Assembly (NCBI GenBank): GCA_003971905.1
Contig: RSEE01000014.1
Location: 496,001 to 560,000, forward strand
Reading direction: 5' to 3'
Source: Moniliella sp. 'wahieum'
Taxonomy: Eukaryota
DNA: 64,000 nucleotides
This document shows, one piece after another, positions 651 through 64,000 of the stretch. Position 1 is the stretch's first letter, and every line of letters starts with the position of its first letter. A model generated the notes under the pieces. It saw nothing but the letters and a program-made list of their open reading frames with translations. It did no database searches and was not told the origin of the DNA. A program made the position numbers and the translations under genes.

Positions 651-678
651 GTTCAACGTTCAACGTTTCACGTTCAAC
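651..678. repeat. (TCA-ACGT)n heptamer array upstream of PRP21
   Basis: gttcaacgttcaacgtttcacgttcaac. Confidence 0.75.
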
Positions 679-752
679 TACGAAAGTCGTCAATGCCTTT
701 CGTCGTCCATTCGGCCTTCCAGCCTGCCCATCACCATCGCAATCTCTTGTCC

Positions 753-3014: not shown

Positions 3015-5111
3015 GATGGGGCGCAAGTCCTTATATTCAGGACCGGTTTACCGGGCACCCTCCTGCCCTCGAGACCCCCTTCGTGGTCTCAGCATGCCAG
3101 CGAGGCTTGATGTTACTCACACGCATGTACGGATCGGTCTTCCCGATGAGGCCTCCAAATACGTTGAGAATACACATGCTTCGATCTAGTCCCCAAACAT
3201 CGTCATCCGACATTCACTCGCTAACTAGTCCGAACAGCCAGCAGAGCGTCTCCAGTCCCTGCTACGTGTCACGTAATTATCCTTCCCTCCAAGCAGCCCA
3301 AAACCCAAGGACTTGAAAGTGGCATACGATAGGCAGATGCTATGGAAGCGGAAGCTGCAGGGACACATGGACTGGTTTAGGGAATTGGCCTACATGAAGC
3401 GAGTGTTAGTATTGGAGCGGCGCCCGTACTACTACTTTTGGCGTTTGCTCAGTGCGAGTGCCTCGTCATGTATGTGTGGCTGTCCCAGTGTATTCAACAG
3501 CGCTCCGCTCCCTGCGGGGAACTAACCCCAGTGGTGTGGATACCAACTAAAGTGGCAGCTTCGGCCCATCAAAACCAAGATCGGTATCTCATGCTGGACA
3601 ATGAAGAGCACATTGCGGCTTATCGTAGGAGTCGCATGCCTCTCCGTGTCGCAAGCTGCAGTACCGAACCGCACCCGGTTGGGACTGGGCTGTGACGCGT
3701 TGACGCCTAGAAGGGGAGATATTTCCTCACACGCTGTCCTAATGGCATCCTTGCAGAGGACTGTAGTTTTGCAGGCTACAAAAAAACCTACGCGCTATAG
3801 GACTACTATATTAGTCAACCCCCACAGTTCGACGGGGGGGGAGGTTAATTGTGAGCTTGCGCGCATTTCTGGCCGCTCCTGTGCGTTCTGGAGTGGCGTG
3901 GAGGAAAAGGAGATGATCGATGATCATGATTGCACCCTAGGGGTGATCGCCTGGGGTACACCCAACACACAGGAGCAGAGTGGGGGAAACCTTGGCACAA
4001 GTGATCGGGTGTTTCTTAGGGGGCCTCTTGCCGACAGGCACAAGAATAGCATGCAAGAAAGGGTGCGGTGACGAGGAGCTTGGCCAGCTATCGGCTATCC
4101 GAGACAATGCATCCTGTCTTAGCACATGCATCACCGAACAGTGTCGCGTAGCCATAATGCATGCCTCCCAACGCAGCCAGCCCCCGTTCGATGCGCCATG
4201 CATTGTGGGTGGAAGGCGTTGGAGGGATTTTGTTTCGGACGAGGGCCTGCGTTACATTGGTCGCGGGACCAGGCTATACTCGTGGCCGCATGAGTTTCTT
4301 CCAGCAGCAGTCGAGGCGGGGGCAGAGGTGTGGCGGCGGAGGGGCAGGGGAGGAGGAGGCCAGCAAGCAAACCGTGACCCGGGGACGAGCACAGAGCCCA
4401 TGCGGACGAGACCCAACACGGGCGGGTCCGGAGAGGAGCGGAGGGCGGCGGCTGGGTAAAGCGCTCAGCGGCTCAAACTTTGGGGTGGGCGGAAGGGTGC
4501 GCAGCAGCACACGCACAGCCGGGCGGAATGGCGCGGCGGAAGCGGAAGGCGGGCGGGCGGCGGCCGTGGCTGGGACGCAGGCGAGCAGGCACACAACTAA
4601 AGGATGCCGCTGGGACGTAACCCTCCGGAGGCCCAAGCCCAGCCTGAGTTTTCGGTTGGGCTCCGCCGTTCGCGGCAGCAGCTGCGACATGCAACTTTCA
4701 AACGCGGCGCTGTTGGGAGTGCTGCACGGGGCATCGGGGCGCAGCGCGTGGCCCGCCGACACGGGCAGTGTGTGGCGCGCCGCCCGACGCATTGGGGCCG
4801 TGGGTGTATGCGTTTGGTTTGTATTGGGGCCAGCACGCTGGGGCCAGCCCCCCCTCCGTCGCTTGGCCCGCCCTCGCCACGCCGGGCTCCCAACCTCGGC
4901 TGCTCGTCGCTGGCCCATCCACGCTGTATAACCCCCACTCGGCCTGCGATGCGCTGCTCCTGCTCCTGCCACCACCACCACCGCCCCTCCTCCCCCCCCT
5001 CTCGCCCATCCACTCCCCATGGCCCACATCCCGGTCTGACGGCAGCTACGTCCACCTCGATCACCTCTACGACTTCGACCTGCCCACCACGTCCTCCCCC
5101 GTCCCCGCCTC

Positions 5112-8100
5112 ATGACAGCCGCCACCCGTCCCCTGGTCCTCCATGCCGCGGCGGCCACCGCCGCTGCCGAGCCAAGCGCCACGGTTGCCATTCCCGTGCC
5201 TGTCGCCCCCTACGAGATTTGGATGGTGGCCCAGGCCCTCAACGAGCAGTTTGCCCGTCTGCCCCCGTCCATCGTCTGCCCGAGGGCACCGACGCCCACG
5301 ATGCTCAGGTCGTGCTCTGCGCCAACTTCCTCCGCTTCCTCGCCGACACACCATCCCACGCCCAGCGCGGCGCCCAAGCCGCTGATGTGCCTTCCGAGGT
5401 CAAGGTCCTGCAGCATGCTTGGTTTGCCTTCAACACTACCTTCCTGCACCTCGCCCCCACGGGCCAACCGGGAATGCAATCGGTCGACGTGCACCACCTC
5501 ACCGCTTCCCTCGACGTCGATGCCCGGACTGCCGTACTGCGCGCCTACCTCGACGCCTATGTCCTCCTCGACGCATTCAAGAACAAGGACCCGGCTCTGC
5601 GCGACATGCAGCTCCCGACACCGCTTCTCTTGCGCCTGGCTCAGCAGGACAAGGCCAAGGTTTTGGCGTCTTTGGTGGCCAAGGCACCAACGAGGTACGT
5701 CGGCTTTAAATAACTGCCCTGCCTCTCTTACTAACGTTATACCCTCCCCCTTTTCCAGATCTACTTTGCCGAGCTTCAAGCCCTCTTTAACACGTACCGG
5801 CCACTCGTCGAGCCCGTGGTGCGCGATGCATCTGCCCTGCTTGAGACACTCGTGGATGAGGCGCGTCAACAAGGCTTTGCGAACTTTTACTCCCAAGGCC
5901 TCGATGTTGCTGGGTGGTTGATGGGCACCACGCCCCAACCCGACAATGCCTACTTTGTCCCTGCACCCGTGTCGTTGCCGTTGATTGGTATGACGCAGCT
6001 GCTCCAGTATCTCGTTGTGTGCCGTTGCTCGGGATTGAGCCCGGATGAGTTCCGTCGGACTTTCGTGGACACTACCGGCCACTCGCAAGGTATCATCTCG
6101 GCCGTGGTTCTGTCTTCGTCCGATACGCCTGCTGCGCTTCACTCCAACATTGTGGCCGCCATCCGCTTGTTGTTCCACATTGGAAAGCGGGCCAAGCGGC
6201 CTTCCCCTCGACCACGCTGGAGCCCAAGTTGGCCGACGACTCGGTTGCTGGCGGTGAGGGTGAGCCCACACCCATGTTGTCAGTATCCGGCCTGGGGCGT
6301 GAGCAACTGGAAAAGCACATTGAAATCACAAACTCGTTTTTGGAGGCCGACCGTCACGTGGCCATCTCTCTTTACAATGGCAAGCGCAACTTCACGGTCA
6401 CGGGTTTCCCGCGCTCGCTCTTTGGTCTTGTTTCGTCTCTTCGCGAGATTCGTGCCCCAGAGGGTGCTGACCAGACGAAGGTGCCATTCAGCCAGCGCAA
6501 GCCTGTCTTTAATGTTCGCTTCTTGCCCATCTCGGTCCCCTACCACTCGGGTTACCTTACTGGTGTGACGGACACATTGATCGGCGTTGATTACGCCCCC
6601 AATGAAGCTCCGTTTGAGCCTTCCAAGCTGGCGGTACGTGTAAGCAACACAGACGACGTTCGGATCTCCGTTCGCTCAAGGATGGGAGAGCCTTGCTTCG
6701 CTCCCTCTGCGATCAGATCTTCACCCAGCCCATCCACTGGGAGACGATTGTGCCCCCCGCCCCTGCCGTGACGCACCTGATCGACTTCGGCACGGGCGGC
6801 ATGTCGGGCATTGGCGTGCTTACAAGTCGCAACCTGGAGGGCAAGGGCGTCTATTCGCTCTTCCCCTCGGGACGTCATGCCAAAGCGAGTGAACTGTACA
6901 ATTTGACTCGGGTGGGGCGGGAGGTTCGGTGGGCCCAGGCGTTTGCGCCTCGGTTGGTCCGTACGCGTGAAGGCAAGTTGTTGTTGGACACGCCGATGTC
7001 TCGCGTGCTGGGCAAGCCGCCACTGATGGTGCCGGGCATGACGCCCACCACGGTTCAAGCTGGTTTCAACATTGCGACCATGAACGCTGGTTACCACATT
7101 GAGCTCGCTGGTGGTGGACACTTTACTCCGCAGATGCTCCGTGAGAAAGTGGAGGCCATCTCTTCGGCCACCCGTGCTGGCGAAGGGCTGACGCTCAACT
7201 GTCTGTACATTAACCAGCGTCTGTGGAACGTCCAGTTCCCTCTCTGGCAAGAGATGCGTCGTGAGGGCCTGCCTCTCCAAGGCTTCTGTGTCGCTGCCGG
7301 TATTCCCAGCCCCGAGAAGGCCAAAGAGATCATCGACTCGCTCGCGCGAGTGGGATTGAGCATATCAGCTTCAAGCCTGGCTCGGTCGATGGCATCAAGC
7401 AAGTGTGCACTATTGCGGCAAAGAACCCGGACTTCTCGATTCTGCTCCAGTGGACTGGTGGCCGTGCTGGTGGTCACCACAGCTGTGAAGACTTCCACCA
7501 ACCCATCTTGGCAACCTACGGCCGCATTCGTCAACACCCCAACCTTGTTTTGGTCGCCGGCTCTGGCTTTGGTTCTGCCGACGATTTCTGGCCCTACCTC
7601 ACAGGCGACTGGTCGCGCGATCAGTTTGATGCCGAGCCCATGCCGTTCGATGGTGTCCTCTTTGGCTCCTGGGTCATGACCGCAAAGGAAGGCCACGCCA
7701 ACGACGAGATCAAGCAGCTCATGGTTGAGGCCAAGGGTGTCGAGGACAAGGAGTGGGAGGGCACCTTTACGCACCCCACTGGTGGAATTGTGACTGTCAC
7801 TTCGGAGCTGGGTGAGCCCATCCACAAGATTGCGACGCGTGGCATGAAGCTCTGGGCTGAGTTGGACAAGAAGTGCTTCACCCTGCCCAAGGAAAAGCGT
7901 CTGGCCTGGCTTGCCAAGAACAAGAACTGGGTTATTGAGCACCTTAATGCTGATTTCCAGAAGCCCTGGTTCCCTGCTTATCTTGATGGGGAGCCAGCCC
8001 AAGGGGTGGAGGACATGACCTACGAGGAGACGATCCGTCGCGCTCTTCGCCTTCTCTACATTCAGGCCAAGCAGCGCTGGGTGGATGTGTCCTTGCGCAA

Positions 8101-11100
8101 TTTCTTTGGCGATTGGCTGCGGCGAGTGGAGGAGCGTTTTGCACCACACACGGGCCAGCAAGCCTCTCTCCTGCAGTCCTACAGCCAATTGGACAAGGAC
8201 CCAGCTGCGTTTGTCGACAAGTTTATCAGTGTCTTCCCTGAGACGACCGACATGCTCCTTTCGGCTGAGGATGTTGCGTACTTCATTGTGCTGTGCAATC
8301 GCCCGACGCAGAAGCCCGTGCCCTTCATCCCCCTGTTGGATGCCAACTTTGCAGTGTACTTCAAGAAGGACTCGCTTTCGTACTCGGAGGACCTTGACTC
8401 GGTCTTTGACCGTGACCCTCAGCGGGTTGCCATTTTGCACGGCCCTGTCGCTGCTCGTCAAACACTCGTGCCAACGTCCCTATCAAGGAGATGCTTGGTG
8501 GTGTAGAGGACAAGCTTGTGGAGCTCATGCTTCAGCGCTTCTACGGCAACGACAAGAACAGTGTTCCCCAGGTGGATTATCTGGGCAAAGCACCCCTGGG
8601 TATTGATCTGGCCGAGCTTGCGGCGGCCCACAATGTGCGCGTTGACCAGGCGGAGAACAAGGTGGAACTTGCGTTGCCGTCCGATGCCAAGCAACTGCCT
8701 GAGCCGTCGCAGTGGTTGGATGCGTTGGCCGGGCAAGAGGCTTCTTGGCTGCGTGCTCTGCTCACCTCGGTCAGCTTGGTCCGTGGGCGGGGGTACATTG
8801 ACAACCCGCTCAAACGCCTGCTCGCTCCCCGGGCCAACCAGGTGGTGCAGCTTGCCCACGGTGCTGATGGCCCTGAACGCCTGACTCTCTTGGGTGCCTA
8901 CCGTTCCTACGGTCCGTCAGACAAGCACACCCCCATTGTCGACATCACCTTTGCGCCGGCCACCAAGGCCATCACTGTCGTTATCAACGAGCTTCGTCGC
9001 GGCGAGCTTGTGCCGCTCACGATGGAGTTTGTCTACCACCCGGAGCAACCGGGTGCTTTGATCCACGAGCGCCTCGAGGGGCGTGAGCGTCGTATCAAAG
9101 AGTTCTACTGGAAGTACGTATACATTCATTCCGAAGCTACTCTTATCTTGATCATCTGCTGACTTACCATTTCTCAAGGCTCTGGTTCAACGAAGACATG
9201 CCCTCCTCGTCGGCTCTCGCTAGCAAGGAGGTGTTCTCCAATGAGCCCAAGACGCTCAATGGCGAGTCCATCCAAAAGTTCTGCCAGGTCGTGGGCAACA
9301 ACAATGTTGTCTACCAGGTGGGTGGGCAAGCGCCCATGGACTTTGCCATTGTGGCTGGCTGGGAGGCCATCATGCAAGCTTTGACGGCGAAGATCGACGG
9401 TGACTTGCTTAACCTCGTACATCTTAGCAACAGCTTCGAGATGGTTCCTGGCGCCTCTGGCCTCCGGGTGGGAGACAAGTGCAAGGCTGAGGCTCGGGTG
9501 CTGAGTGTCAAGATCTCCGCCACCGGCAAGTCGGTTTCAATTCAAGGCAAGGTCCTGCGACAGGAGGGTGAGGAGTGGAAGCCCGTTATTACGGTCGTCT
9601 CCTTCTTCTACCGTGGCAAGTTCAGCGACTATGGCTCCTGCTTCGAACATCAGCGTGACCGCTATTCGTTTGAGATCAAGTCCAAGGCTGAGGCTGCTGT
9701 TCTGATGGCCAAAGATGGTTCTCCTGGACCGCCCCCTCACCCCTCGAGTCGGGCACGGTGCTGTATTTCGATGTGGACAACACTATGCGCTACAAAACGC
9801 TACGACCTTCGCTGATGTGCAGGCTCACGGTGGGTTTATATCAAGGACTACAAGGACGACCTTATCCAGGTGGGTGTGGTGGAATACGAGGCCGACTCGA
9901 TCAGCTACGGCAACCCCGTTTCTGAGTACATCAAGCGCGTCGGTGGCAGCTCTCAGATGCCGCTGCGCCTCGACCATGGCTACACCCTTGAGGCAAACGG
10001 CCCTGCGAGCAAGTTTACTGCTCCGGCGACCAACGAGCCCTATTCCCTGGCGTCGGGTGACTTCAACCCCATTCACATCAACCCCTACTTTGCCGACCTG
10101 GCTTCGCTCCCTGGTACCATTACCCATGGCCTCTTTTCGTCGGCGGCCACGCGCCGATTTGTGGAGGATATGGCGGGCGAGGGCCATCCCGATCGTGTCC
10201 TCTCTTTCAAGGCCCAGTTTGTCGGCATGGTCCTCCCCGGCGACGAGTTGACGGTTACTTTGCGTCACATCGCTATGCACGGCGGCAATAAGGTCATTTC
10301 TGTCCAGACCGTCAACCAAGCGGGAGAAGGTGCTCGAGGGTGAGGCTGAGGTGGCCCAACCTCCTACGGCCTACGCATTTACTGGGCAAGGCTCGCAGGA
10401 ACAGGGGATGGGGATGGACTTGTACTCATCTTCGGACACGGCCAAGGCGCTCTGGGATGAAGCCGATCAGCACCTGAAGGCCACCATGGGCTTTAGCATC
10501 CTCGAGATTGTGAAGGACAACCCCATGAGCAAGACGGTGCACTTTGGCGGTGTGCGCGGGCATGCGATTCGCGACCGGTACCGCAGCATGATGTACGAGT
10601 CGACGGATGCTGAAGGCAAACCGGTCACCCTCCCGCTTTCCCTGAGATTACGCTGCGCTCGCAGAGCTACACCTTCCAGTCGCCCAAGGGGCTTCTCTAC
10701 GCTACTCAATTTGCGCAGATTGCGTTGGTGCTCGTGGAGCTGTCTGCCTACCGCGATATGAAGGACCGTGGCCTGATCCGTCCCGACTCGGCATTTGCCG
10801 GTCACTCGCTGGGCGAGTACGCTTCCCTGGCCGCTGTGGCCTCGGTGCTGCAAGTTAAGGACTTGGTCGATGTGGTCTTCTACCGTGGCCTGACCATGCA
10901 GCGTGCCGTCAAGCGTGACGCCGAGGGTCGCAGCTCGTATGGTATGATGGCCTGCAACCCGACTCGTGTTGGCCCCTCCTTCTCGGACGCGGCCTTTGCC
11001 GAGGTGGTGGACTCGATCGGGCGCGTGTCGGGCAAGTTGATCCAAACTGTCAACTACAACGTCTCGAGCCAGCAGCTGGTCGTTGCTGGTGAGCTGGTTG

Positions 11101-12830
11101 CACTTCTGACGATGACCAACGTGCTCAACTACATCAAGCTGCAGAAGATTGATCTCAACCGCTTGCTGGAGACGATGAGCCCCGAAGAGGTGCGAGAGAA
11201 GCTGGAGGAGATTGTCTCGATGGTGTTTGCTGAAGCGGAAAAGGAAGCTGCTCAAGGCCCTCTCCAACTTCAACGCGGGTTCGCCACCATCCCTCTGCCC
11301 GGTATTGATGTGCCCTTCCACTCGCGCTACCTTATGCCGGGTGTGGCCCCCTTCCGTGCCTACCTCTCCAAGCGGATCAACGTGGATGCCATTCGCCCTA
11401 ACCTGCTGGTGGGCAAGTACATTCCCAACTTGATTGCCCAGCCGTTTGAGCTTTCCAAGGCGTATGCGGAGACGATTGTCAACCAGACGGGCTCGGGTCG
11501 CTTGGCCAAGGTGGTCAAGGAGTGGGAGAAGGAGGGCTGGGCATCGCCGGAGAAGCAGCAGCGGCTGACGACGTTGTGGTTGTGGAGCTCTTGGCTTACC
11601 AGTTTGCTTCGCCGGTGCAGTGGATCAAAACGCAGGAGCTGCTGTTTGGCAAGCCCTTCCAGATGGAGCGCTTTATCGAGTTTGGCCCCAGCCCCACCCT
11701 GGTAGGCATGGCGGTGCGAACCCACAAGGCATTCTACAAGGCGTCGGACGAGGCCCGTGGACTGCGCCGCGAGCTGCTTTGCTCTTCTAAGGACAAGGAA
11801 GCGCTCTACTATGCCTTTACCGACCCCGAGGCGGACGAGGCGCCGGCTGCAACAGAGGAGGCGGCCCCTGCGCCCGTGGCTGCTGCACCTGTGGCTGTGG
11901 CCGCTCCCGTCGCCGCCGCCCTGCTGGTCCTACGCAGGAGGTGCCTGACGAGCCGGTCAAGGCAATCGAGACGCTCATGTCCATCCTGGCTCAGAAACTG
12001 AAGAAGCCGCTCGACTCGATTCCCAAGGACAAGGCCATCAAGGAAATGGTCGGAGGCAAGTCGACGATGCAAAACGAGATTGTATCGAGCCTGATCGAAG
12101 AGTTTGGCGTGGTCCCCGACCGTGGAGAAGAACTGCCTGGGAAGAGCTGGGCGCCGCGCTTCAGATTGGGTACAAGGGGACTCTGGGCAAGTACACCTCG
12201 GGCCTCGTGTCGCGGTTTGTGGCGTCCAAGATGCCTGGTGGCTTCAACCTGTCGGCCGTCAAAGCGCACCTGTCCAAGTCGTGGGGGTTGGGTGCCGGAC
12301 GGAGCGAGTCGGTGCTGCTGGCGGCTGTGGCTGACGAGCCGGCTAAGCGGTTGGGGTCTGAGGGCGAGGCGAAGGCCTGGCTCGACTCGGTTGTCCAGGG
12401 CTACGGAAGGCGGTCGGGTGTCTCCTTGAGCCAGGGCGGCGGTGCGGCGGGTGGTGGTGCTGCGACGGGCGGGGCGGCAATCTCGTCGGAGGAGCTGGAC
12501 AAGCTGCGCGATGCAGAGCACCAACATGCTCGGCGGCAGATTCAGCTGCTGCAGCGCTACCTGGGTGTGGACGCGCGGGCCGAGGGTCGCGCTACGGATG
12601 CGGTTCGCTCGGAACTGGCGCAGGCCCAGGCTGAGCTGGATGCGATTGCGGCCGAGCATGGCGAGCTGTACACGAACGGCATCCGTCCCAAGTTTGATGC
12701 GCGCAAGGTGCGCACCTACTCTTCTTCGTGGAACTGGAGCCGGCAGCAGGCGCTCCTGCTTTACTATGACATTCTCAAGGGCCGTCTGGGGCTGGAGAAT
12801 GGGCGGCTGACGTCGCTGGAGCACGAGTAA
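5112..12830 (+). CDS. FAS1: Fungal type I fatty acid synthase, AT-ER-DH-MPT-ACP chain
   Basis: FGGQGTNE and GHSQG (AT); GMTPTTV and GGRAGGHHS (ER); SGDFNPIH..GTITHG (DH); FTGQGSQ and GHSLGEY (MPT); an intact ELLAYQFASPVQWI at the MPT end; MVGGKSTMQNEI (ACP serine). Introns 5695-5758 and 9114-9178. Many frameshifts. An alternative start exists at 5019. Confidence 0.95.
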
Positions 12831-13420
12831 GGCGGCTGCCCCTTGTGGCAGCGATGATGGGTTTCGACGTGTGGTTAGGAATATCATGGCATGTGGTTCG
12901 GACTGCTGGAGATGTTGGATAGAGGTGGGATCTCAGGTAGGATGTGGCTTCGAGCCAAGGGAAGGCAAAGGGAACAGGAAGGCAAGTGAGCGAATGGGAC
13001 CAGCTTCCAGCTAGTCAAACTGAATAACCCAAGTGGGAGGTGTAGTGTAGTGGGAGATGTGGAGAGGACATATGAGGCTATGGCGTGGGGGCCCCATGGC
13101 CTCACGCGGTGAATCGGGTACCCCGCCCTGCGCAAGCCGGCACGCACGGTGGGTGAAACGTTGAAAACAAAGCCAGTGCAGAAGGATTAGAAATGGCACA
13201 CTGCCCCCCCGGCAGCCGCCCGTGCAGACGCACCCCCTCGCTGCAGAGGGGCACAGCGCCTGTGTGGCCTGCTGCGTTCCCAGCACCGGCTGGGGAGCAG
13301 TGTGCCAGCCCAGCGGCCGAGCCGGGTGGGGCCGGGCCAGGCGGCCGGACGGATAGCCGCTGCTTGGGCTTCTGCGTCGCGCTCCACCACCCCCTCCCCA
13401 CCCTTCTTGCCCCCTCCAGC

Positions 13421-14125: not shown

Positions 14126-15440
14126 AGTCGTGCGTCGGATGGTATGGTATGCCCATGTGATCCATGAATGTGCGCAAGGGATCTGTAGAGCTCCATACGA
14201 CACGTTCCCCGTAGGTGCCGATGGCTGTCGACGACGGTGGCGCTCATGATGCCTGCGAGAGATTGAGCCCCGGGGCTAGCCAAAACGGACCTGCATGGCA
14301 GGGCTGGCGGTACGGAAGCAGAGGCTAGTGGGCATTTCACACCTCGGACGAAAGGGAGAGCGAGACGCGTACGAGAAAAACGTGGAGGGATGAACGGAGC
14401 AGTGGGGTTGAATGGGGCAAGCGGTGCCAACCTGTTTCCCAAGTCTTGGGCATCGATGTGATGGGGTAAAAAAGATGTTGGTTGGAGGATAACGTTGCTC
14501 GTGGCTGCTGGCCCTGCACGTACTCATCTGTCGCCGCTGGATATTGAATGGTTTTTTCGCCATAGAGGCTGCCCTCCAAGTCTACTGCACAGTGACAAGT
14601 GGCATGTGCCAGTTGCAATCCTGTATGCTGAGAAATGCGCTTCACCCGAGGGAGAGTTCGCGACGGTGAACAGAGGGAGATGCGAGAGAGCAATAGATGA
14701 GAGATGATACGTCGACGTGGGTGAAGCATTCCATCACGGTACCGCAGATAGATGAACGACCTTAAACGACGTCTCGCCCGGGCCAGTACGACTTTTTAGA
14801 AGTAGTAATAGGTTCCGGTTCCACTGGCTTTCAAGATTGTTGTTGTGTCCTTTGTTTCGTCCTTGTTTCGTTTGGTTCGATGAATTGAGATTGGCTTCCT
14901 CTAAAATATACCTTTTAGGTCTGCGATAGCGAACCATAGCAGGAAGCCATAGTATGGCAAGCAACAATGTATACACGGAGCGATATCGCAGACGGTATGC
15001 GCTGTTCTCTATCCTCGCACGACCTGAAAGACAGCCAAACACATCCGTGGCACCACTTTCCTGATGGTAAGCAGCCATATACCCTCTGAGGTCAGGACCC
15101 TCTGAGGCCTCCCTTTCGCTTCCAAACCGGATGTAAGTGGTAAAATGTAGTGCGAAGAGTGCGTACCAATGAGCGTGGAATAGACCTGCATGTGAGCGAG
15201 TGCGCGCTGTTGGGCGATCAGAACGAACCATCTCCTGGCATGCCATATTCATCGCATCAATCCCACCGGGTGCATCAAAATCCTCTTTTTTCCCAGCTGC
15301 TTGTTCGCGCGCTATCTATATAGCCTTCTTCGCTCGTTGGCCTGGCCTGAAAACCACCGCACGAACAAGTGTAACATGTAACACAGCACGCACCCAGTAT
15401 CCCAGCCGTATGTGTGGCGGCTGTCAGGAAAGTGCCTACG

Positions 15441-15571
15441 TGACGCGTGACGCGTGAGGCGTGAGGTACCTGGCTGCTTCCGTTCGGCATTCGATGTTCG
15501 GCGCGGCAAGCATTCAATATTCAACTGAACGTTGTTCAAACGTTCAACGTTCAGAACGTTCAGAGTTCAAA
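15441..15571. repeat. Heptamer arrays TGA-CGCG, TCA-ATAT and TCA-ACGT
   Basis: tgacgcgtgacgcgtgaggcgtgagg; tcaatattca; tcaacgttca. Confidence 0.75.
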
Positions 15572-23504: not shown

Positions 23505-23685
23505 GGTCGGCCACCTGTCCTGGCTACTACGCGACCCACGAGGAAAGCAGTGATGGAGGTGGGAATGCCGATGTCGTCGCCTGGACACTGGACTGCAAGC
23601 AATCCTTGCCCAACTTGCCGTCAGCGGCGGAACCATGGCTCATTCCGCCCAGCATTAACCCTACCATACTGCGATGCATCATTCG

Positions 23686-35600: not shown

Positions 35601-35635
35601 CGCTCGATCTCCCGAGAACCCAAATGGTGGGCCAT

Positions 35636-44691: not shown

Positions 44692-45645
44692 AGTCGCATG
44701 CATTATTTTTATTGAGGAGGAGAGTGCCGATATTCTTCCCTTCCTCGTCGTTCTCTTTCACTTATTGGCTTTCCCACCACGATTCTGCCCTATGCCCTTT
44801 TCGCGTGCCCTGCTTTCTCAGCTACCTTGCAACTCTCAGGCACATTACCTATGTGTGCTGAGTCCTGATTGAGTTGGGCGCTTTTCGGACTCTTTTCTCC
44901 TTTTTTGGGGTTTTGTTCTCTACCTTCGTCTTTCGTTTGCGAGATATCCGAGAGGTCCCACCTCTCTTCTTGTCAGACTGGCCCCGAAAACTTGGTTCTC
45001 TATTGCTTTCATGCGGTAAACGGGGTCGTTTTTTTGCCCTGGTGCGGTGCACCTTGTGAAAATTTCCCTCCCCGGTCGTCTCCCCGACTTGATGTATTAT
45101 CTCTTCCCCTACTCCCTCTCGTCTTTGGGTTCTACTCTCCTACTCCGGTTATGAAACGCTACCACCCCCCACTGCTACCACATCGTGACGGGATACGTAG
45201 TAGAGGGATGCTTTCTTTCTCACGTGGAGTATATTCGGTGGACGTGGCGGGCTCCTTTCATAGTCTGCGGGACCAATGGTGTCCTCAAGACGCTGATGAC
45301 GGTGACGGTGCTAGTATTCTTTCGGGTTTCGCGCGTTTACCGGATTATCATCAAAAACCGAACATTAGCGGAACGAGGTAGATTTGTGCTGTTTATAGGT
45401 GCGCCAAAGTGATGCGTGGACTTGATCACTGAGATCACCCACGCTCGATGATGCTTAGCTCAGCTCCTCACTCGGACATGGTATGTGTAAAAGCGGTAGA
45501 AGCGGAGAAAACACTGGACGGCGACCGAAATGGCCGGTCACGCGTCACGTAGGCTGTTGCCAGTGAGCATTACCAATAGGCTCCCCTTGCACTGCTCCTG
45601 TGCCACGTGGTTTATCCCCATGGTTTTGTTCGGACTTGACACGCC

Positions 45646-45700
45646 TCATGCTTCAAGCTTCACTCACCGGTCACCGGTCACCGGTCACCGCTTCAAGCTC
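45646..45700. repeat. (TCAAGCT) then (TCACCGG)3 array upstream of LEU1
   Basis: tcatgcttcaagcttcactcaccggtcaccggtcaccggtcaccg. Confidence 0.9.
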
Positions 45701-48138: not shown

Positions 48139-49473
48139 AGCAGTCTCACTATGTCATCTTGTTGTTATACGTCGGCCCGGTTATGCATGGTAACACCGCT
48201 CTTTTTTCTGCAAGCACTTTTCTCTGGACATAGTATTTCTCGATAGATAGTCTCTTAGTTTGTTTGTCCTGCTAGCACCTCATCGACGGTGTCATTCTTC
48301 CGAATGCAACTCTCGTTTGCAGTGGACATCGCAAACTCAACTAAGAGCTGCCTACCTCACTCTGAGAGATCGACCCGAAAAGCATGCAAAGTAATACAGC
48401 CACTACGTCGGAGATCATGCCCGGGACATTCGAGGACCTGAGAGTCCCCCTGAGGCTGTTGGCCGTATTGCGGTGATTCGATGTGGATCAATATGTTTCC
48501 GGAAATGCCTGGAAAGGCGCCTGAGGCCTGACCCTCTACCGCGACTTGTGTGCTCTCAATATGCGTGGGCCTGCTGTGCTAGCATGTGATGCTCGCCACT
48601 CCCTCATCGAGTCATGCGCATCTCATATCTCTTCTTTTGTGCACAGTTCTGAGAAAATATTAGCCGCATCCACAGAGCCGCGGATTTGCTTCTAGATGAA
48701 GCCGTCGATAGCCCGCCACCGTGGTGTCAATGTGTCAACAGGCATGGTGTGCTTGCTTCTGGACTTGTTCCATCTGCATAGAAAATCGGCGGCTGACGAG
48801 ATGACGCGGCACTCCCGTATTTTGTGTGGAGTCACAAGTGTCATACTCGAGCCCCCGCAGCGGATGCTATATCCGCGTTTAACGTTTGCCAGTCGCAGTT
48901 GGCCAGTGGAGGGTGACCGGTGAGCGAAACGTTGAAACACGATCAACTCCGCACTCCGGAGTAAGTTGATCGTTGACGCGTGAGTGAGGCGGGGTCGATG
49001 ATCCGGCCCGACCCGACCATCGATCTGAAGCAGTCTCGTCCGCCTAACGCCCGCCAGCGCACCGCTCGCCCAACCACATGGCTGGCGACCGCTGTGACTC
49101 GGGTCACCGGTGAGCTGCCACAATGACCAGTGAACGGGTTAGTGTATTTTTTCGCCACCATCGCAGCTCAGCGTGTGGGTGCTTGCAGCTACGCCCCCAC
49201 CATCTCCCCCGTCGCCGCAGTCATCCTCATAACCAGCACGGGACCCCGCCACAACCTTCCAAGCAGCCCCCCTTGTCTACATCATTTGCGCGCCCGCCCA
49301 CCTCTCAATCCTGGTATCCGGCCCCGCCTGCGTCCAGGTATGCGCGCCAGCCCCCACACTACTGTCCCATCTGTCGAGTGCAAAGGACGCCAACTACTCA
49401 GACTGAGTGCTGACCATCTCTTCTCTATTTCCCGGTTCAACAGCAGCCTTCCCTCTCCTCATCATTGTTTTGA

Positions 49474-51111: not shown

Positions 51112-51762
51112 CCCCACGTGAGACCTTCCCTTCCGGTGGAATACGCGGTTCTTTCCCCCAAGGAAAGAGGGTGATTAAGCGGGAGGTGTATTATGTATGA
51201 GTTTGCCCCTTTACTTGGCGGCAGACGCGTGTGGAATCATCATCATCTTTAATTCAAAAAGGATTGTTGGTATCGGGGCGAGTCGTCTAGCTTCGATAGA
51301 GAACACAGATAGTAGAACACTGCTTCACCGACTCGATCTTTCGGTGCATGCACTTTCGTTGGTCGTTGATGAACGAGTTGACTATAGAGCTCGTTGGCAA
51401 AGCATTGTGGTGTGCTTGAAGGAATGAGATGAGTATTGGTGTTTCAAGCAATACGCTTTACGCGCGCGTTCCGGCTCATCCTGTTTGAGGTTGGTTGAGC
51501 GGAGGGACTTTTTGGTATACTTGCCTCTCACGGTGCCTATCCAATGCCTATATGGGACGCTTGCCGAACACACGTCAAGCAACTGTCGCGCCGTGGGAAC
51601 CTGTGACCGAAAACAGTGCCCCGACTAATAAAGCTGGGAGGTCGATCATGACCACCGAGGTGGAAGAAGATCGAGTGGAGGTAGTATCGGTCGTCGAAAG
51701 AAAATACAGGGGAATAGCCAGGAGGAGCATAGAAGTTCGTTCTCTCGAACGAGCCACCAGCT

Positions 51763-52180
51763 TCAACCTTCAAGCTTCAAGCTTCAAGCAACTTCAAGCT
51801 CTTCAAGCTCTTCAAGCTCTTCAAGCTGCTTCAAGAGCTTCAAGTGAATCCCGGCATGCATCAGGTCACGCGCTACACTTTTAAGTCGCGAGGACTTGGT
51901 GACGCCGATAACGCATGACGCGTGACGCGTGACACATGTGACACCTCACGTGTGAGGCCTCAGCCCCTCAGCGCTCAGCGCCTCAGCCTGAGGTCAGGCC
52001 GTCAGAACTCAGTTACTCAAGTACTTAGTCACACTAGTCACTGCCACTGTGGGACAGGTTCAAAATGTTCAGGAGACGTTCAGGCCCTCAGCGCCTCAGC
52101 GGCGCTCAGCCGCTCAGCTGAGCCGCTCACGCTCAGGCCAGGTTAGGCCATCGATCATCGACGTCATCGAATCGATCCTC
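51763..52180. repeat. Mosaic of TCA/TGA-palindrome arrays (AGCT, CGCG, GGCC, GCGC, TCGA cores)
   Basis: Direct reading; see findings. Confidence 0.85.
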
Positions 52181-53396
52181 CGGCCTGATACACTGCTGCA
52201 GATGCCTCGGCGCCAGCCATAGCTGCACATAATGGGGGTACATACATGTTAGGGTCAAACGGGCGAACTCGTGTTTCTTCACACAAAACAGGAGTAGCCC
52301 TTACCAAAGGCTCGAGATCGAGAGCAGTTCCGGGCCCACATTTTTTGGTTCAGTGTACGAAGCGCTTCAAGCTGCAGCGCACTTGGCACACTTAGCGCTC
52401 AGGCTGAGCTCCCCTCAGGCCGCCGGCCACGACTCCTTCTTGGGAATACGGGGGCACTGCAAATCCATGTATCGCTTGCCTGGCTGTCCACACACTCCGC
52501 AGCTTCGTCAAAAAATTCAGCGATTTAGCTGTGCATGAGTACCATGAGTGCGGGCTCAGCCTCAAGCTCACAGGCCGAAACTGGTCCAGTGCGCTCTCAG
52601 TACTCAGTATGAGTTCAGACGTTATTCAGAAGAGCTTGAAGCTTAAGAGCGCCGTTTAAGTGCTTTTGAGCGATAGACGTTGAGGCCTGAGGCTGAGGCG
52701 CTGAGACTGGTCAAAAAAGCTATTTACTTATGAGGTCATCGCCGTGCTCGCATCAAAACACATCCCACACACAGGATTCCTCCTCTTTCCGGCTTGGAGA
52801 GGTCTGGAATAGGGTCTTGGAGCGTGGGAAGAGCAGGGCATCGTAGTTATGACGTTTTTATACACACGAATGGGCCTTCCACATTGGTGATCGGCCAAAT
52901 ATGCACGACACGATCCCCATTGCAGGCAACTGGAGGACTGCGCCGTACTGCCCAGCACCATCTCTGTCTATCTCCTCCCCCTCCCCCCGCGGGAGTGAAC
53001 CAGTCGCCCCCCCCCCCCCCCCACAACCATTCAATATCGAGCCGAGGCCCTAGGCCTCTGTACTCAAGTTGCACTCAGCACTCAGCCTCAGCGCTCAGGC
53101 TCAGTGCCCTTGCCCCCCGGATCCCTATACCAGTCCATGTGACTCCACAGATATCGTGGCCTGGTTCAGATCGAATCTCACTGGGGTTCGCATACGCGCC
53201 TATCGGTTCACCGAGACCGCGGATGTATCGTCTCTTCAACAGCTCTCTTCAGATTGTGGGTATTATTCTCTTTCCTTCCTCCCACCACACCCTTTTCCTT
53301 CTCATCTCTCGTCTGGCTGAGCCTATCGACTTTTGGTGAGAACACCGCCCGCGCTATCCCCTCGCAATCGCGCTTTATCTCGACTATCTGGACGAC

Positions 53397-57360: not shown

Positions 57361-58493
57361 TCAACCTAAACGGGTGGCTTGAGGACGGATCACGACCTTG
57401 ATCCCACTCCATCCGTCCTTGTTTTTTTAGTGCAAGCTGGCGACCGTTGAGGCCGCCAGGGGTTACTTCAGGACGGTTGGGAAAGAACTCTCCACAGCTC
57501 AGCCAGCCGCTGACGGCGGCAACAAACTTCTCTGCCAAGGGGCGCAACTCGGGCGAGTGGCCAACGCCCATCACTGGCTTGAACTGGATCGCGGGAGTGG
57601 CCTCCGCTGCCGCCTTGAGGCTGGGCTCGGTAGGGGGCAAGACTGTGAGAATAGGAAGCACGGTGGTGCTGTTGGTCACTTTGTTGTACTTCTTGATAAT
57701 CTCCACCGCCAAAGCTTGCGAGTCATCGGTGGAGACAGCGTCCGAGGTGGCGACCAGAGTCTTGCCATCTAATGCTTGCACAAAGTCGTTCACGGTTGCC
57801 GTGTGACGATCAAGAACAACATCTGCACCCAACTTCTTGAGCCACGCCGTGTGGGCAACGGACGAGTTGGTGATCACGCGGAAGCCTGACAGACGAGCGA
57901 GCTGGATGGCGTATTGCCCCACGCTCGACGAACCACCAAGGACGACCACTGCCTTACCCACACCTGTCTGGGAACCGCCCTGATCCCAAGGGGCAGGAGA
58001 GATAGCAGCACCTTGCTCAGCATACAGTCCAGTCCAGGCAGCGGCAGCCGCCAAGCAAATCCCCGCCGCTTCGTCGTCCGAAACGTTGGATGGGGTACGA
58101 GCCAGGAGGGATGCGGGTATCGTGACGTATTGCTGGAATGTGCAGCGCTCAATGTTGCCGAGGAGGCCCTGGAAAAAGACGCGGTCGCCAACCTTGAGAA
58201 GAACAGAATGGGTCAGCCTCGAGTAGTCGTAACTAAAATGTGCGTACCTTCAATTCTTTCACGTCTGCGCCCACTGCAACGATCTTGCCCGCCGCGTCAG
58301 AGCCCAAGACGGTGGGAGGAGTGAGTAACAAACCATGCTCTACGATTTTCCAGTCAGCCGGGTTGATCGCAGTGCTGGTGACAGCCACCAGAGCCTCATC
58401 GGCAGCGGGAGTAGGAACAGGCCGGGTCTCAACCACAGGCGGGACGCCTTTCTGTTTCCAGACAGCTGCGAGTTGCTGAGCAGGGACAGCCAT
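57361..58493 (-). CDS. Medium-chain dehydrogenase/reductase, enoyl-reductase-like (GroES + Rossmann)
   Basis: AINPADWK, VLGSDAAG, K|VGDRVFFQG, VLGGSSSVGQYAIQLARLSG, LKKLGAD. Intron 58193-58247. The C-terminus GIKVVIRP lies in a shifted frame. Confidence 0.88.
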
Positions 58494-58844
58494 AGTCTTG
58501 TGAAGTTACTTCAGAGGTATGGTTGGAGAGAGAGGTCGGGGGCGAAGTTGGAGAGCTTGAAGGCTGGAGCCTTTCAGGTCGACGCCCTGAGGGTGACACG
58601 GGTGATTCGTGTGCAGGGGGTGGTCATGGCGTCGAACGTGGCAGGCGCATGTGGAATTGCTTAAAATCGGTGTCTTTGGTTGCCGGTCGACGATCTTCTA
58701 TCTCTAAGTTCCATATCGGAGGGTGCAAAGAAAATGTGCAACCCTACTGCACCCCCCCACCTGCACGTGACGGCTGGGGGCTGGCTGTGCCAATCATCGG
58801 GCATATGGCAGAGTCGCGTCGACGCGTCCCTCCACCCACTTAAA

Positions 58845-59207
58845 ATGCCCCCTACCCGTACTCCCCGCCGGTGCCCCCATTGCGACACCGACGCTCACAC
58901 TCGCACACGGTGCCCCTTCAATCCACGCCCACGGTTGTGCCCCCACTGCCGTCGACCTGGCCACAAGGCTGCCGCGGAGCGGTGTAGCAAGTTGAAACAA
59001 GCAATTGCGACTCACGGGCTACCTGGTGGATCCGAGCGAGGAAGAGAAGCCTTTGGGCGTGAAGCCGAGGCGGCTGCACGCGTGGCAAGGCCGCGTATAC
59101 GCCGGCTGGAGGGTAGTAACGTGTCTGAAGCCTCCGGGGCTGAGCGACGGGTAGATGCAGTGGAGCGGACAGACACTTCCAGGGCTGAGGCATGGCAGTG
59201 GCTGTGA
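58845..59207 (+). CDS. Small protein with tandem zinc knuckles
   Basis: CPHCDTDAHTRTRC (CX2CX4HX4C) and CPHCRRPGHKAAAERC (CX2CX4HX6C). It may continue past 59207 in another frame. Confidence 0.45.
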   Translation: MPPTRTPRRCPHCDTDAHTRTRCPFNPRPRLCPHCRRPGHKAAAERCSKLKQAIATHGLPGGSERGREAFGREAEAAARVARPRIRRLEGSNVSEASGAERRVDAVERTDTSRAEAWQWL

Positions 59208-60374
59208 AAGGAACCCACGCGACATGCTGAGGTACGGAGAACCGACACGGCTGATGGAAGGCTCGCGCGACTGGGCAGATGGAAAGATAGAGTGCGACCT
59301 GGGAGCACTCGCGATCCTATGGATGAGTTGCAAAGCAGCCTTCAGACAGGCGTGAAGGCAAAGGTGAGCCACAAGTCTTCAGGCAACATCGAGTTGAAGG
59401 GAAGGAGACAGGAGAGAGAGAAGGGAAATGAAGCGAGCAGGGCGCGTGCGCCCTGCGAGCGGAACTCTTCCGCGATCCACCGAGGGCCGTGCAAGGGAAC
59501 CCCAGCACTACCCTCCAACAAAAGCTAGCGGAGGCTGCGAAGGGACTAAGAATGTCATCCGATAGCACTTCCTCGTAGGTCGATACTGGCTTGTAGGCCT
59601 CAAGGCTAATTGATATTGGGTGCGCCGGGGTTTACGCGTGGCATATATCGCATCATCGACATCATCGCATCTTGTGCACATCAGTTCGTAGTACATAGGG
59701 ATGGAGATATATGCGATGGGCATATAGGGCCAATGTGGTCGCCAGGCGCCCCACTGCTGGTCGAGAGCAGTGTGGGGAGCGGGGAGCGGAAGGCGGGCAA
59801 GAGAGGTCAGCGGCCGGTCAGAGCGTACCTCAGCGCCTCAGCCCTCAGCCCTCAGCCTGAGGCTTCAATGACTTCAGCGGCTCAGGCGCTCAGCGCCGGT
59901 CAGCCGAGCAACAATGCGCGACGATGCCGGGCGAGCTAGCGTCGTCTCCAGGGGCGGACCTGATGTTTGGGGGCTGTGACTACGGGGGCAAGATAAGTGT
60001 ATGTGATGGTACTAAGAAGAAGAAACAAAAGGGACATGGGCGGCAAGCACGGTAGAAGCCAAGATGGTGCTCACATTTAATAGCTCTCGTAGTGGGGGAT
60101 ACATTTCTGCCTTCATGGGGAGAAGACACTGACGCTCACGTCGTGAAACTGATAAAGGACAGATAGAACTGAGGCCCTAACTGGCACTTAGTGGGCACCT
60201 ATGGCCCGTTGGGCGTGACAGGGAGAATGCGGAGGGGGGCAGTGTAATGTGCACAGCCCGGTCAATCCATATTCATTGTTTAGTAGTGTGGTTCCTGCTG
60301 CATAATGCTTAAGGTACTACCCGCTCAGCTGGACCGATGAGAGACCGGCGACATCTTGCGGAATCCCAGGTTGT

Positions 60375-62082
60375 TCACATCACAACGCACTTCTTGCTAT
60401 TGCATCGGGACGGGGTCGGACGAGGTTGTGGACGAGGGGTGCGGGAAGCCTGCGGCCCAGGGGTCTGCGGTGCTCGCTGTCCTCCTTGTCGCGTCCCGCC
60501 CTGCTTGTACGCCGACTGTTTGGCGGGCGAAGCCTTCACGGACGCGCCGTACTCTTCCGCTTGGAGACTCTGAGCCAACTGAGCATCCGTTTGCATCGAC
60601 GTCAACAGCTTATTGGGGCCCGAAGAATGGGACGGTGACTGAGTTTGTGAGGCTGGCGGAACCGCGGATGGGAAGGGGCCGGGATCCTGACCAGATGGAG
60701 CGTGTCGATCGACCGGATTTTTTGGAGGTTTCCGGCGAGCGACGTTAAAGCTTTCATCAAAGAACTCACTACCCGCCTGGTCCACATCCACCAAGCTTTC
60801 CCACACCACAGAAGAGTGTCTCAGCAAGGCAGCGTCTGTAGCCAAAAGGTACAAAGGTGGCCCTTGCTGCATCCCCTCATCCTCCTTCTTGCGGTAGATA
60901 ACCGAGACATGAGAGTTGCGGAAGAGGCAGCAAGCTCGCCAGGACGAAGGGATTCGGTCAACGCGAATAAACCCGAGTAGGTCAACTGCGTGGGAGAGCG
61001 ATCAAAAAAGTCTTTCAGGGCCAAAGCTGGGGGGAATCCTTAACGTCAACAATTCGCTTGTATAAGAGACTGCAGGCATCCACATACCATCATCCACTTG
61101 TTGCTTTTGCTCTTGGGTTAATGATTTCCCGCTTTCGGCACCAAGCGCCTCAGGGGTGAATTGAAAGAGCGCACCCGAGGAAAGGGAGTCAGCTTGAGCA
61201 ATCAATCATCATAGCAGAGTCGTAGTCTGCTGTACGCTGCGTCGCTTTAGCACCCGCTCGTCCGCTTGATCAGGCAGCCATCCATGGACCAAACGCACTC
61301 CCGCTAATTGGAACAAGGCGCGCGCTCCATCCCCATTTTCGTCGAATCCGAGAGCGGCAGGGGCAAATGAATCGCACGTATCAAATTGAACATTGACCGC
61401 CAGTCCAGTCTGCGTCGAGGGCAAGGCAGTCAAGGCTGCCATGACGTCCGCCTCGGCATCAGGACCTTGCTTAGCTGCGCGCGCAAGCAAATCGTTGGCC
61501 AGTAGTGATGAGAGGTACTCATAGGTTGCAAACGTTTTGGTAGGTGAGATGGTGATTTCGCCCCTCAAAATCAATACGTTGGCCAATGCAAAATGGAGCA
61601 TGGGCCATTCACGTTCTGTTAAGCCAAAGGAGAAGCGATTCAGGAACTTGAAAATACGTTAAGGATACTCTAGAGCGCATACGCACCTGCGTTAAGATCC
61701 TCCTCGGCTGGCCAAGCCAGGTCACCTCTTTCAAATCCCACTGGAGCTCAGGTTGAACCGCCACTTCGCCTGGCGCCGACACGTGATGAGGGTCGTCAGG
61801 CAACAGCTGAGCCTGAGGTTCGGCGAGCGGAGAGGCATTTGGGGGTTGTACATCGAGTGGGTGTGATGCCTGCACCCCCGAGCCGGACTGCTCCGTGGCC
61901 GCGCCAGATGGGCTGAGGGATGAGGAAAGAGTGGGAGGATCATTGCTGTGTAAGGCATTCCGCCTTACAGGAGGCGTGTCAGCACCAGTGGGAAGGGAAG
62001 TTGATAGAGAAGGATGAAGAGTGGAGTGTGCAGCTGGATCCTCGGTCGAGACGGGCAAGGCAGATTCAGAGTCCTGTTGCAT
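60375..62082 (-). CDS. MINDY-family deubiquitinase (MINDY-1/2, yeast MIY-like)
   Basis: RRILTQ|NVNGPCS..LANVLILRG, LVHGWLPD, TQLTYSGL, FRNSHVSVIY, LYLLATD, VVWESL, DAQLAQSLQAEE (MIU-like), terminal CVVM*. Confidence 0.88.
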
Positions 62083-64000
62083 TGCTGGTGTGGCTGTTGG
62101 GCAGATGGTTCGAGTGCATGCTGAGGCTGAGCAGGGAATCAGAGACAGAAACGGAGACGGCAGCTGACGCAGCAGCGTCTTGCGCCTTGCCGAGGGGGGT
62201 ATCGGATGACATGAGAGCGTGAGCCTTCTCGTGGGGTTGTGCGTGAGGCGCGTGAGGCGGGGAGGATGCTGCGGACTGCGAGCGGTGGTGGCCGTGAAAC
62301 GCTGCAGTGTGCTGGGTCTTGTCCTGTGACGTGTGCGAAGGGTGTTGCCCATCCCAATCTCTATGTCTGAGATCACTTGGTCTGTCTGACATCTCACAGC
62401 ATGCAGCACGGATGCTCAGACTGAGCCCTGCGGCTGACGTACTGACATGCGCTCCAGCGCGCGCATCCCACGCAAGATGCAACAGCCGTAGCTAAACGTT
62501 AACGTAATTACGCGCAACGCGTAGCGCATAACGCGCAAGGATAGCTACTCGTATCTACGCACGTGACGTCGCGACGTGTGGTGATGATGCGGTGAAGCTG
62601 GAGCGTTTCAACATTGAATACATCAGCCCAGACGCGCGGACGTCTGACGCTGTACTCTCTCGTCACGCGCGTCACTCGCCTCACACGCGTCAGGCCCCCT
62701 GTATGGCCTTCAGCTTCATCGACTTCATCGAACATCCTTCCCTGGCTGCACTTAACCGCCTAACCCCCCCTAACCCACCAAGCCTGGTCCCATCACCCAG
62801 TAGCCCGTACACTCGGATTTCTTTCCCTACAGAGGTTACTTTTCCTTCTTCACAACTTCTGCTAAAAAAAACGTGTCGAGTGTGTGTACAGCGATATGGA
62901 ACTAAGGAGGACCGGATAGTGTAGGTTAATATTATAGTTGAACGTATATATCCTTCAACCACATCGCACAACATTCGCGCCATCTTTTGGAGGCTCTCCT
63001 ACCGTGTAGACGCCCTCCTCGATATCAATAAAACAAAAGAGACGTAAGTGATTGTCGTTATTGATCGTCGATGGAGAACCAGTGCGTGTGCATATGGAAG
63101 GGCGTATAGTCTACTGCAAGTAAGACAACCGTTACATTCCCCTAGCGGGAATAAAAATCACCTACGCACGTCGAACTAGATGACTGCCATGCGTATAAGG
63201 CGGGGGCTGGGCTTTGAGTCACCTTCATGGTCCATCCTTCCATGCCCGCAGAGGGCATGGGATGAGAAGAGGGTTACGCGTAGTCTCATAGGCAGTACTT
63301 TGGTCTGGTAACTCGGAAACATTGACATGGTTCACACGTCACAATCTAATAGAAAGAAAGTGCGAGCACTGGACGGAACGAACTGATAAATCTCATTGTA
63401 GGTGTGGTTCGTATAGGTCACATGTCTATCACGCTCATTCGTCTCCACGAGGACTACAATGACGGGTTTGGAAGCGAATGACGGGAGCCAGATGGATCCT
63501 GATTTGAGGGAGCCGGGTAGGCGCAACGCTTCCTTGTCCCATCCTTACGCTCTGTAAATGATGCTATGGGTCGTACAGTAGGGCATTATGCTTGAGAAGA
63601 AGTTCTGCGTACTAGCTGTTTAGGGATGGGCTCTACTGGCCGGCCGCATACATAATTTGTCATTGTTTGGCTCTGCAGTTAGCGTTACAGTTTGTATGAA
63701 GGATGTTGACTATGAACTGAGGAAAGTAGGAGAGTGGCTTCCATTGCCGAAAGAAAGGCTATTACTGTTTGTCCAGAGCTATATGCTCCGTCTGTTCAAA
63801 TGAACCTTCAGGTGAATGGAGTCCCAACTGTGCGATGCTGATACACTCTATGATACCGTCTTCTGCTGATATTTACACCTACGTTCTGCGACTGGGTCAG
63901 GATCTTTTCCACCACAACCACCTGCAGCTCCACTATCTGTCGATGATCATAGCCCTGGGTATCTTCTTTTAGAGTGACGGCGCTTACGAGTCCAGGCCTA

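Follow-up and report, generated by a model that had tools for sequence, protein, structure and literature searches.

Seven-base palindromic scars in the genome of Moniliella sp. 'wahieum', probable excision footprints of a cut-and-paste transposon

What process writes one symmetry rule into short repeats that lie mostly outside the genes of a fungus? The question is raised by a stretch of 64,000 nucleotides of Moniliella sp. 'wahieum' (GenBank assembly GCA_003971905.1, contig RSEE01000014.1, positions 496,001 to 560,000), here called the window. A preliminary description of this stretch reported intergenic arrays in which a T-N-A triplet is followed by a self-complementary 4-base core, with a period of 7 bp. 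One such unit, TNA-core-TNA, is termed a scar below. The source assembly comprises 69.5 Mb in 223 contigs; the labels C1 to C172 denote its numbered contigs, and the window is C14, 496001-560000. The analysis also covered a 794-kb sample of the genome and 192,917 bases aligned between haplotype pairs within the assembly (C14/C19, C13/C69, C40/C7, and C17/C62). The signature is real, rule governed, genome-wide, and mutational, and its units are probably footprints of transposon excision.

The sites named earlier were largely recovered. The reported core, flanked by TNA on both sides, was found within 1 base of the given place at 23 of 24 sites; the exception, 25572, reads TGA-CTAG-TAC, and the CTAG array proper lies at 25584-25604. 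The suggested excess of palindromic cores was also borne out. TNA-palindromic 4-mer-TNA occurs 63 times in the window against an expectation of 6.4±2.1 from a third-order Markov background (40 simulations, maximum 11), and nonpalindromic cores occur at chance level (91 vs 94.8±8.4 on the same background). Across the whole assembly, four TSA triplets at 7-bp spacing were counted 7,521 times per strand and the reversed pattern 1,554 times. Enrichment was seen in 11 of 11 contig samples, at 36-122 per 100 kb. The 794-kb sample contains all 16 palindromic cores and 787 scars, about 1 per kb of genome, which extrapolates to about 65,000 scars in total. The ratio of palindromic to nonpalindromic cores was 18.3 in the Moniliella genome and 1.02 in 80 metagenome loci (839 kb, mostly bacterial, few fungal); a metagenome scan using LEU1 returned mostly bacteria, with no close relative among the loci returned.

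The junction triplet is specific. In the 794-kb sample, TCA/TGA junctions were 33-fold enriched (642 vs 19.6 expected) and TAA/TTA junctions 63-fold (145 vs 2.3), and the next-best triplet reached 4.5-fold (81 vs 17.8). A T is needed at the first position (901 vs 85, 33, and 21 for the other bases), and the A is needed as well. Other symmetric centers (A-N-T, C-N-G, and G-N-C) gave 8-24 occurrences against 901 for T-N-A. Arrays exist as described, but most scars are single, since 513 of 597 perfect runs hold one 7-base unit. The units had also been said to read almost the same on both strands. This needs correction: the junctions run in the same direction (same center 787, complementary 95, other 67), so that they are direct and not inverted repeats, and perfect inverted products, TCA-core-TGA, are a minority.

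The unit event could be read from differences between haplotypes. The host-gene differences between them are mainly synonymous, with a ratio of nonsynonymous to synonymous polymorphism (pN/pS) of 0.07-0.26 in five stretches, indicating that the haplotypes are real alleles. Indel sizes in the aligned haplotypes peak at 7, with counts of 50, 68, and 28 for 6, 7, and 8 bases. The event turns abTNAcd into abTNAcd-d'c'-TNAcd or, in mirror form, into abTNA-b'a'-abTNAcd, so that the new unit carries two bases that mirror one flank (palindromic or P bases). Thirty of the 68 seven-base indels fit this rule exactly at TNA sites, and 7 further ones do so with a single mismatch; among simulated plain duplications, 3.2% satisfy it. 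Among the 30 exact events, the starting site was nonpalindromic in 26; 13 have the left form and 17 the right, and 21 cannot be read as plain tandem duplications. The comparison of the window with C19 supplies 9 of the 30, at 3602, 23762, 28151, 37973, 39115, 43011, 48519, 52613, and 53175. The first working reading, slippage of a symmetric odd palindrome xyT-N-Ay'x', is ruled out by the one-sided extension into the flank and by the mostly nonpalindromic ancestral sites.

Between haplotypes, substitutions outnumber scars by about 190 to 1 (5,762 vs 30). C19, which was assembled separately, has 25 of the 53 window scars in identical form, and this count bears on a possible artefact of sequencing, amplification, or assembly. 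Frameshifts are frequent in the genes, as expected of an error-rich long-read assembly, and the aligned haplotypes contain many 1-base (1,646) and 2-base (527) indels. Scars, however, are common to separately assembled haplotypes, avoid coding DNA, and obey the rule at both 7 and 9 bases, and the probability of an artefact is negligible.

The length of the duplicated word was determined in the genome sample. Among 571 two-junction units, a two-base continuation of the repeat was one sided in 373, two sided in 91, and absent on either side in 107. The number of duplicated bases, k, between the two P bases and the TNA was 0, 1, 2, 3, and 4 in 457, 77, 57, 2, and 1 cases, respectively. This collapse beyond 2 indicates that the duplicated word ends at ab and is 7 bases long. 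The 8- and 9-base forms, which are rarer, retain a larger part of the second copy. A complete TNA-centered 7-mer, two P bases, and the 7-mer again were found 64 times against 0 expected, and a duplication of length 8 only 6 times. Correspondingly, the whole 7-mer is duplicated around two P bases in 6 of 25 nine-base indels, and in one of them (45562) each flank contributes one P base. For two off-consensus events, either 3 P bases or a mutation followed by a deletion must be assumed. On the mirrored side, cd was AG in 70, TC in 67, AA in 1, and TA in 2 of 457 cases in the 794-kb sample, and the other side was nearly flat. An A/T bias was also present 3 and 5 bases outside the scar site; these side biases may reflect a preference in hairpin opening or in target choice.

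The unit event also bears on the first branch of the earlier interpretation. A mutational or repair process that acts mostly outside genes is supported, but it does not proceed by repeated fold-back synthesis of palindromes, since the events are fixed 7-bp direct duplications in which a single flank supplies the two inverted bases. Polymerases are known to switch templates over short ranges and to synthesize palindromes ab initio, and the rival nearest to the earlier idea is that a nascent strand copies 2-3 bases of the opposite strand and re-primes 4-5 bases back. Such a process needs no element and yields an inverted patch with a direct repeat, and slippage clearly acts on the arrays. It would not, however, favor T-N-A over the other symmetric centers or stop at exactly 7 duplicated bases, and it does not account for a 7-mer duplicated around one P base per side or for a palindrome without a loop. 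This explanation is highly unlikely.

The direction of the events was read from multicopy repeats that include an unscarred copy. Of the 6 listed scars of this kind, 5 are restricted to a single locus or haplotype pair (for example, 1 scarred vs 8 unscarred copies); the sixth is an array on an array and is uninformative on direction. Scars in multicopy repeats are derived, and the events are gains. Scars were also gained inside dead long terminal repeats (LTRs). Slippage acts on the finished arrays, as seen in multiunit indels of 14-36 bases and in period-9 runs. An array of 11 TGTGAGC units with a nonpalindromic core (locus L063, 6765-6875) is represented by a single unit in haplotype C69, a case of pure slippage beside rule-conforming scars.

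The reported rarity of scars in coding DNA was confirmed. Nine scars fell in 245 kb of predicted coding DNA and 778 in the remaining 549 kb, a difference of about 38-fold, with a crude codon model that was trained with scars masked and that undercalls coding DNA. The nonpalindromic control was only 2.3-fold depleted in the same DNA. Within the window, none of the 53 scars lies in the 9,345 bases matched by Pfam (7.7 expected). The rarity in coding DNA may be attributed to selection against 7-base frameshifts. Scar density was 1.58/kb between divergent gene pairs and 0.71/kb between convergent pairs, and 53% of scars lie within 100 bp of a scar with a different core. This distribution, noncoding, promoter biased, and clustered, would accord with a selected cis-regulatory or chromatin code, in which a factor reads TGA/TCA, bZIP-like half sites, at 7-bp spacing. 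Such a factor had been the other origin put forward in the preliminary description. It accounts neither for the chance level of nonpalindromic cores nor for the one-sided flank rule, and units are gained fast both between haplotypes and within dead LTRs, so that a regulatory code has a very remote chance of being the origin. Single scars may have been used as binding sites later.

The pattern is probably best explained by excision of a cut-and-paste transposon that has a 7-bp target, ab-T-N-A-cd, and leaves P nucleotides from blunt hairpins. The comparison gives the states before and after an event, and the steps from insertion to joining are deduced from them. Insertion would duplicate the target 7-mer, and excision would seal each flank as a blunt hairpin. 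A host nuclease would then open the hairpin 2 (or 3) bases from its tip, leaving short palindromic 3' overhangs. End joining would retain one overhang and trim the other by 4, 3, or 2 bases, giving the +7, +8, and +9 classes; at TNA sites, 2 P bases with loss of ab would look the same as 3 P bases with one T:A microhomology base. A scar in turn provides a TNA site of perfect symmetry (d'c'TNAcd). Once opened, its ends would be cohesive, which may explain why the arrays run in one direction. A repeat strike on a scar would add one exact unit, and slippage would later alter the copy number. Open promoter-side DNA would be struck most, and the 7-base frameshifts would be purged from coding DNA. 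Shorter target duplications were rejected: a 3-bp TNA duplication of the Harbinger type supplies no cd to mirror, and a 2-bp duplication, as in the young EnSpm-like family described below, would flip the center base. Flank hairpins have been demonstrated for hAT, Transib, RAG, and MULE (PMC5499845), and Artemis cuts hairpins open chiefly 2 nt from the tip, leaving 4-nt palindromic overhangs (PMC2175297).

Several observations weigh against excision of a transposon. Thirty-three of the 68 seven-base indels fit neither the scar rule nor a plain duplication, and a clear case with one P base from each flank was found once in the census and once among the polymorphisms. A haplotype pair by itself gives no event direction, and runs such as three consecutive 9-base units (51792-51825) are better explained by slippage. 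The scars are far more uniform than the natural footprints of rice, of which 8 of 94 were clean (PMC4423477). A screen of about 0.9 Mb (about 1.3% of the assembly) for terminal inverted repeats (TIRs) with a target site duplication (TSD) detected no resident element that has a 7-bp TNA duplication, and the large haplotype insertions examined are LINE-like (long interspersed nuclear element) or solo LTRs, none with such a duplication. Profile searches of the genome gave 0 matches for hAT (PF05699; a weak test, as the control matched nowhere), 0 for MULE (PF10551; the control matched in 3 prokaryotes), 0 candidates for KDZ (PF18758; weak, with no positive control), and 0 matches in a Pfam search for Plavaka, also a weak test. 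These blanks are weak because Pfam also misses the young EnSpm-like transposase. That family made 2-bp duplications (TT and TA) at 2 of 2 copies checked, and the Tnp2 loci on C17/C62, C34, C127, and C131 showed no ends, no TIR, and no 7-bp duplication. A domesticated Tnp2 at C17/C62 was rejected, since the gene drifts neutrally (pN/pS 0.6-1.5).

These results lead to the chief rival, in which the same chemistry operates with no lasting insertion. An orphan, domesticated, or hit-and-run transposase would cut NN-TNA-NN with a 7-nt stagger, and the ends would be filled, hairpinned, opened, and rejoined, making the enzyme a promoter-biased mutator. There are dozens of polymorphic scars, yet no resident element with a 7-bp TSD in the 193-kb haplotype alignment or the screened DNA, and the product is extremely uniform. 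On the other hand, no candidate under purifying selection was found, the one tested (Tnp2 of C17/C62) drifts, and about 1 scar per 190 substitutions would be within reach of a few active copies. Cutting with no lasting insertion is judged unlikely.

Excision of an inserted element, the preferred explanation, directs attention to the DNA transposons of the genome. EnSpm/CMCT is the sole DNA-transposon clade found, with several Tnp2 lineages, one of them young; a profile search with Tnp2 (PF02992) gave 3 matches, 1 over the cutoff. The young EnSpm-like element is 9,233 bp long, with 21-bp TIRs (CACGGGCGGGTGTGAAAAATT), CAC..GTG ends, subterminal repeats of about 23 bp, and a Tnp2-like open reading frame whose product has no Pfam match. 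Five near-identical copies are present (among them L055 1073 to L108 1305 and L026 5342 to L109 4138), with 90 matches on 45 contigs. One copy sits in C19 where the window is empty at 58450. This family is not the scar source, because its duplications are 2 bp, and it carries three scars itself. Eight scars lie in the 411 bases immediately upstream of the dead C17 Tnp2 gene (L092 3030-3440); several are missing in C62, so that new scars still arise in a promoter whose element is dead. A pattern combining a 7-bp duplication with a guessed CAC end, CATCAACCAC, matched 262 places and was uninformative. A search for a longer protein with P0123 as the query found nothing, and a library search returned 437 distant relatives. 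One LINE-like family, young and truncated at the 5' end, varies at its 3' ends and is polymorphic between C13 and C69 (L057 7606-7997, L058 8957-9343, L066 1-1130, and L002 1660-2905). A more specific identity can be offered only tentatively: the agent is possibly a CMCT-type transposase of an undescribed sort, with RAG-like blunt hairpins and NN-TNA-NN as its 7-bp target, that has mutated DNA genome-wide with a bias toward promoters. It may have left no lasting element or acted in a hit-and-run manner, and its scars would seed tandem repeats and supply promoters with palindromic sites resembling those of transcription factors.

In the first half of the window, a GTTCAAC array (651-678) lies upstream of a PRP21/SF3A1-like (Surp) gene. 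A 9-base scar with full 7-bp duplication of CGTCAAG and two P bases was found at 210-225, outside the span of the preliminary description. The site AATGAAG (3595-3610) is unscarred, and C19 carries a 7-base scar there. A cluster with cores CATG, CGCG, ATAT, and ACGT and with 8- and 9-base classes (15370-15571) is located upstream of a GH79 gene, and a single 7-base scar occurs at CATGAGT (20533-20546). In the cluster with cores CGCG, TGCA, and CCGG (23684-23800), the scar at 23762 is missing in C19, where the site reads GGTAAAC. Clusters with CTAG, CGCG, and TGCA (25567-25912) lie upstream of a PAP2 gene. The region 27930-29324 holds scars at 27930 (TCGA) and 29311 (GTAC) and an unscarred GGTGAGG near 28151, where C19 has a scar.

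In the second half, a solo LTR (TG..CA; 33889-34717) belongs to a multicopy family, its flanking 5-mers differ, and insertions of 0.2-0.45 kb near it vary between haplotypes; a scar at 34727-34740 adjoins its end. The region 37973-39528 holds scars at 37973, 38425, 38725, 38922, 39085, 39114-39178 (a CTTCAAG array), 39398, and 39513, and C19 has one more at 37973. The scar CGTGACA-TG-TGACA (43010-43023) is missing in C19. A cluster with CGCG, AGCT, and CCGG (45536-45690) lies upstream of LEU1; its CCGG array is 3 units longer than in C19, and C19 bears at 45562 the 9-base scar with one P base per flank. The region 48520-48925 contains scars at 48520 (missing in C19), 48876 (an off-consensus site with 3 P bases), and 48912. 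The densest cluster (51759-52136) has CTTCAAG at 7- and 9-base spacing, followed by CGCG, CATG, GGCC, and GCGC units. In 52534-53190, scars occur at 52534 (9-base), 52595, 52679, and 52692, and the unscarred sites 52613 and 53175 are scarred in C19. The TT target at 58449-58450 is empty; C19 holds the 9.2-kb EnSpm-like element there, with a 2-bp duplication, and this element is not the scar source. LTR-like repeat pieces at about 58700-59580 (matches on C1, C13, and C40) are inserted relative to C19, with the flank partly duplicated. The remaining scars are of the 9- and 8-base classes at 59651-59894 and of the 9-base class at 62242 and 62714 (62242-62729).

The gene content of the window is fungal (PRP21-like, fatty-acid synthase, chitin synthase, LEU1, KRE6, and others). 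Its LEU1 shares 69% identity with that of Tilletiaria anomala, the best named match, and 82-86% with other proteins; as judged from LEU1, the host would be a smut-related Exobasidiomycete. LEU1 is present as three haplotype pairs: C14/C19, C13/C69 (83%), and C40/C7 (about 70%). The C13 and C40 LEU1 regions are syntenic with each other and not with the window, and this pattern would fit a hybrid, an ancient duplication, or a sample of mixed origin. The fatty-acid synthase (FAS) gene at about 5100-12900 encodes AT, ER, DH, MPT, and ACP domains, its Pfam matches end inside FAS_I_H, and an SDH3-like gene comes after them; the FAS may be split here, in contrast to the single chain of smuts. A sedolisin (TPP1-like) gene lies at about 35600-37750 on the minus strand. 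Its 79% paralog on C127 is duplicated in inverted orientation along with part of a Tnp2 gene (L098 29-2644 and L100 7868-10000). A likeness of the scars to the 7-bp intergenic repeats of Ustilago maydis was looked into, and no support was found. A literature search that lacked most subscription papers found no description of the pattern.

If the scars are excision footprints, they have several uses. Footprints elsewhere are usually too varied to count, whereas here one readable signature occurs about once per kb. The genome would be a record of tens of thousands of past jumps, including target preference and repair outcome, and the 7-bp stagger and the geometry of an unknown transposase could be deduced from the scars alone. 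They would offer a route by which short tandem repeats start by transposition instead of slippage, as well as a natural in vivo readout of how a fungus opens hairpins and joins ends, comparable to V(D)J coding joints. Scars also cause promoters to vary between haplotypes in a way that can be measured. Caution is needed, as motif finders would label the scar palindromes regulatory sites.

Among known systems, slippage microsatellites share with the scars the copy-number change of finished arrays; they differ in that the first scar unit has two bases not copied from the neighboring strand (21 of 30 events). RAG nicks exactly at the border, and Transib makes a 5-bp target duplication. The scars differ from Transib in showing a 7-bp TNA-centered duplication symmetric about N, with 8- and 9-base classes, and from V(D)J and Transib joints in having one dominant product at about 1 per kb of genome. 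What the scars share with the coding joints of V(D)J recombination and with Transib excision is the even palindrome copied from the flank end (PMC5499845, PMC2175297). As in V(D)J joining with Artemis, two P bases dominate, as with opening at +2, and the partner end is trimmed (PMC2175297).

In hAT Ac/Ds footprints, as in the scars, short P-nucleotide palindromes link the two copies of the target, and a few footprints dominate at each site (PMC5873905). The Ac/Ds palindromes are, however, odd, with the complement of the element-adjacent base at their center (PMC5873905), whereas the scar palindromes are even and lack this centering. Even classes were counted 655 times against 42.5 (n=7) and 120 against 5.5 (n=8), and the exact haplotype events are even in 30 of 30; the Ac-type odd class showed a small excess (77 vs 51.5 for n=7 and 28 vs 9 for n=8). 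Seven-base TSDs are described in basidiomycetes for hAT7 (rusts) and Kyakuja (Agaricomycotina) (PMC12730594); hAT7 thus shares the duplication length with the scars, and Kyakuja (KDZ) shares that length only. Kyakuja lacks TIRs, so that TIR screens would miss it (PMC12730594). MULE is a poor fit, with excision of Muta1 in yeast more than 90% precise (PMC5499845).

EnSpm/CACTA (CMCT) has in its favor the Tnp2 transposase present in this genome, a candidate tie to the scars only. Its TSDs are 2-3 bp, in contrast to the 7 bp required by the scars; 10.1101/2025.05.19.654958 gives 3 bp for the EnSpm element CNIRT6 of Cryptococcus and 8 bp for KDZ1. The scars thus fit none of hAT, Transib, and canonical EnSpm, because each fails one tested feature. 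Their even (blunt) symmetry favors the Transib/RAG/EnSpm (CMCT) group, or Kyakuja, over hAT.

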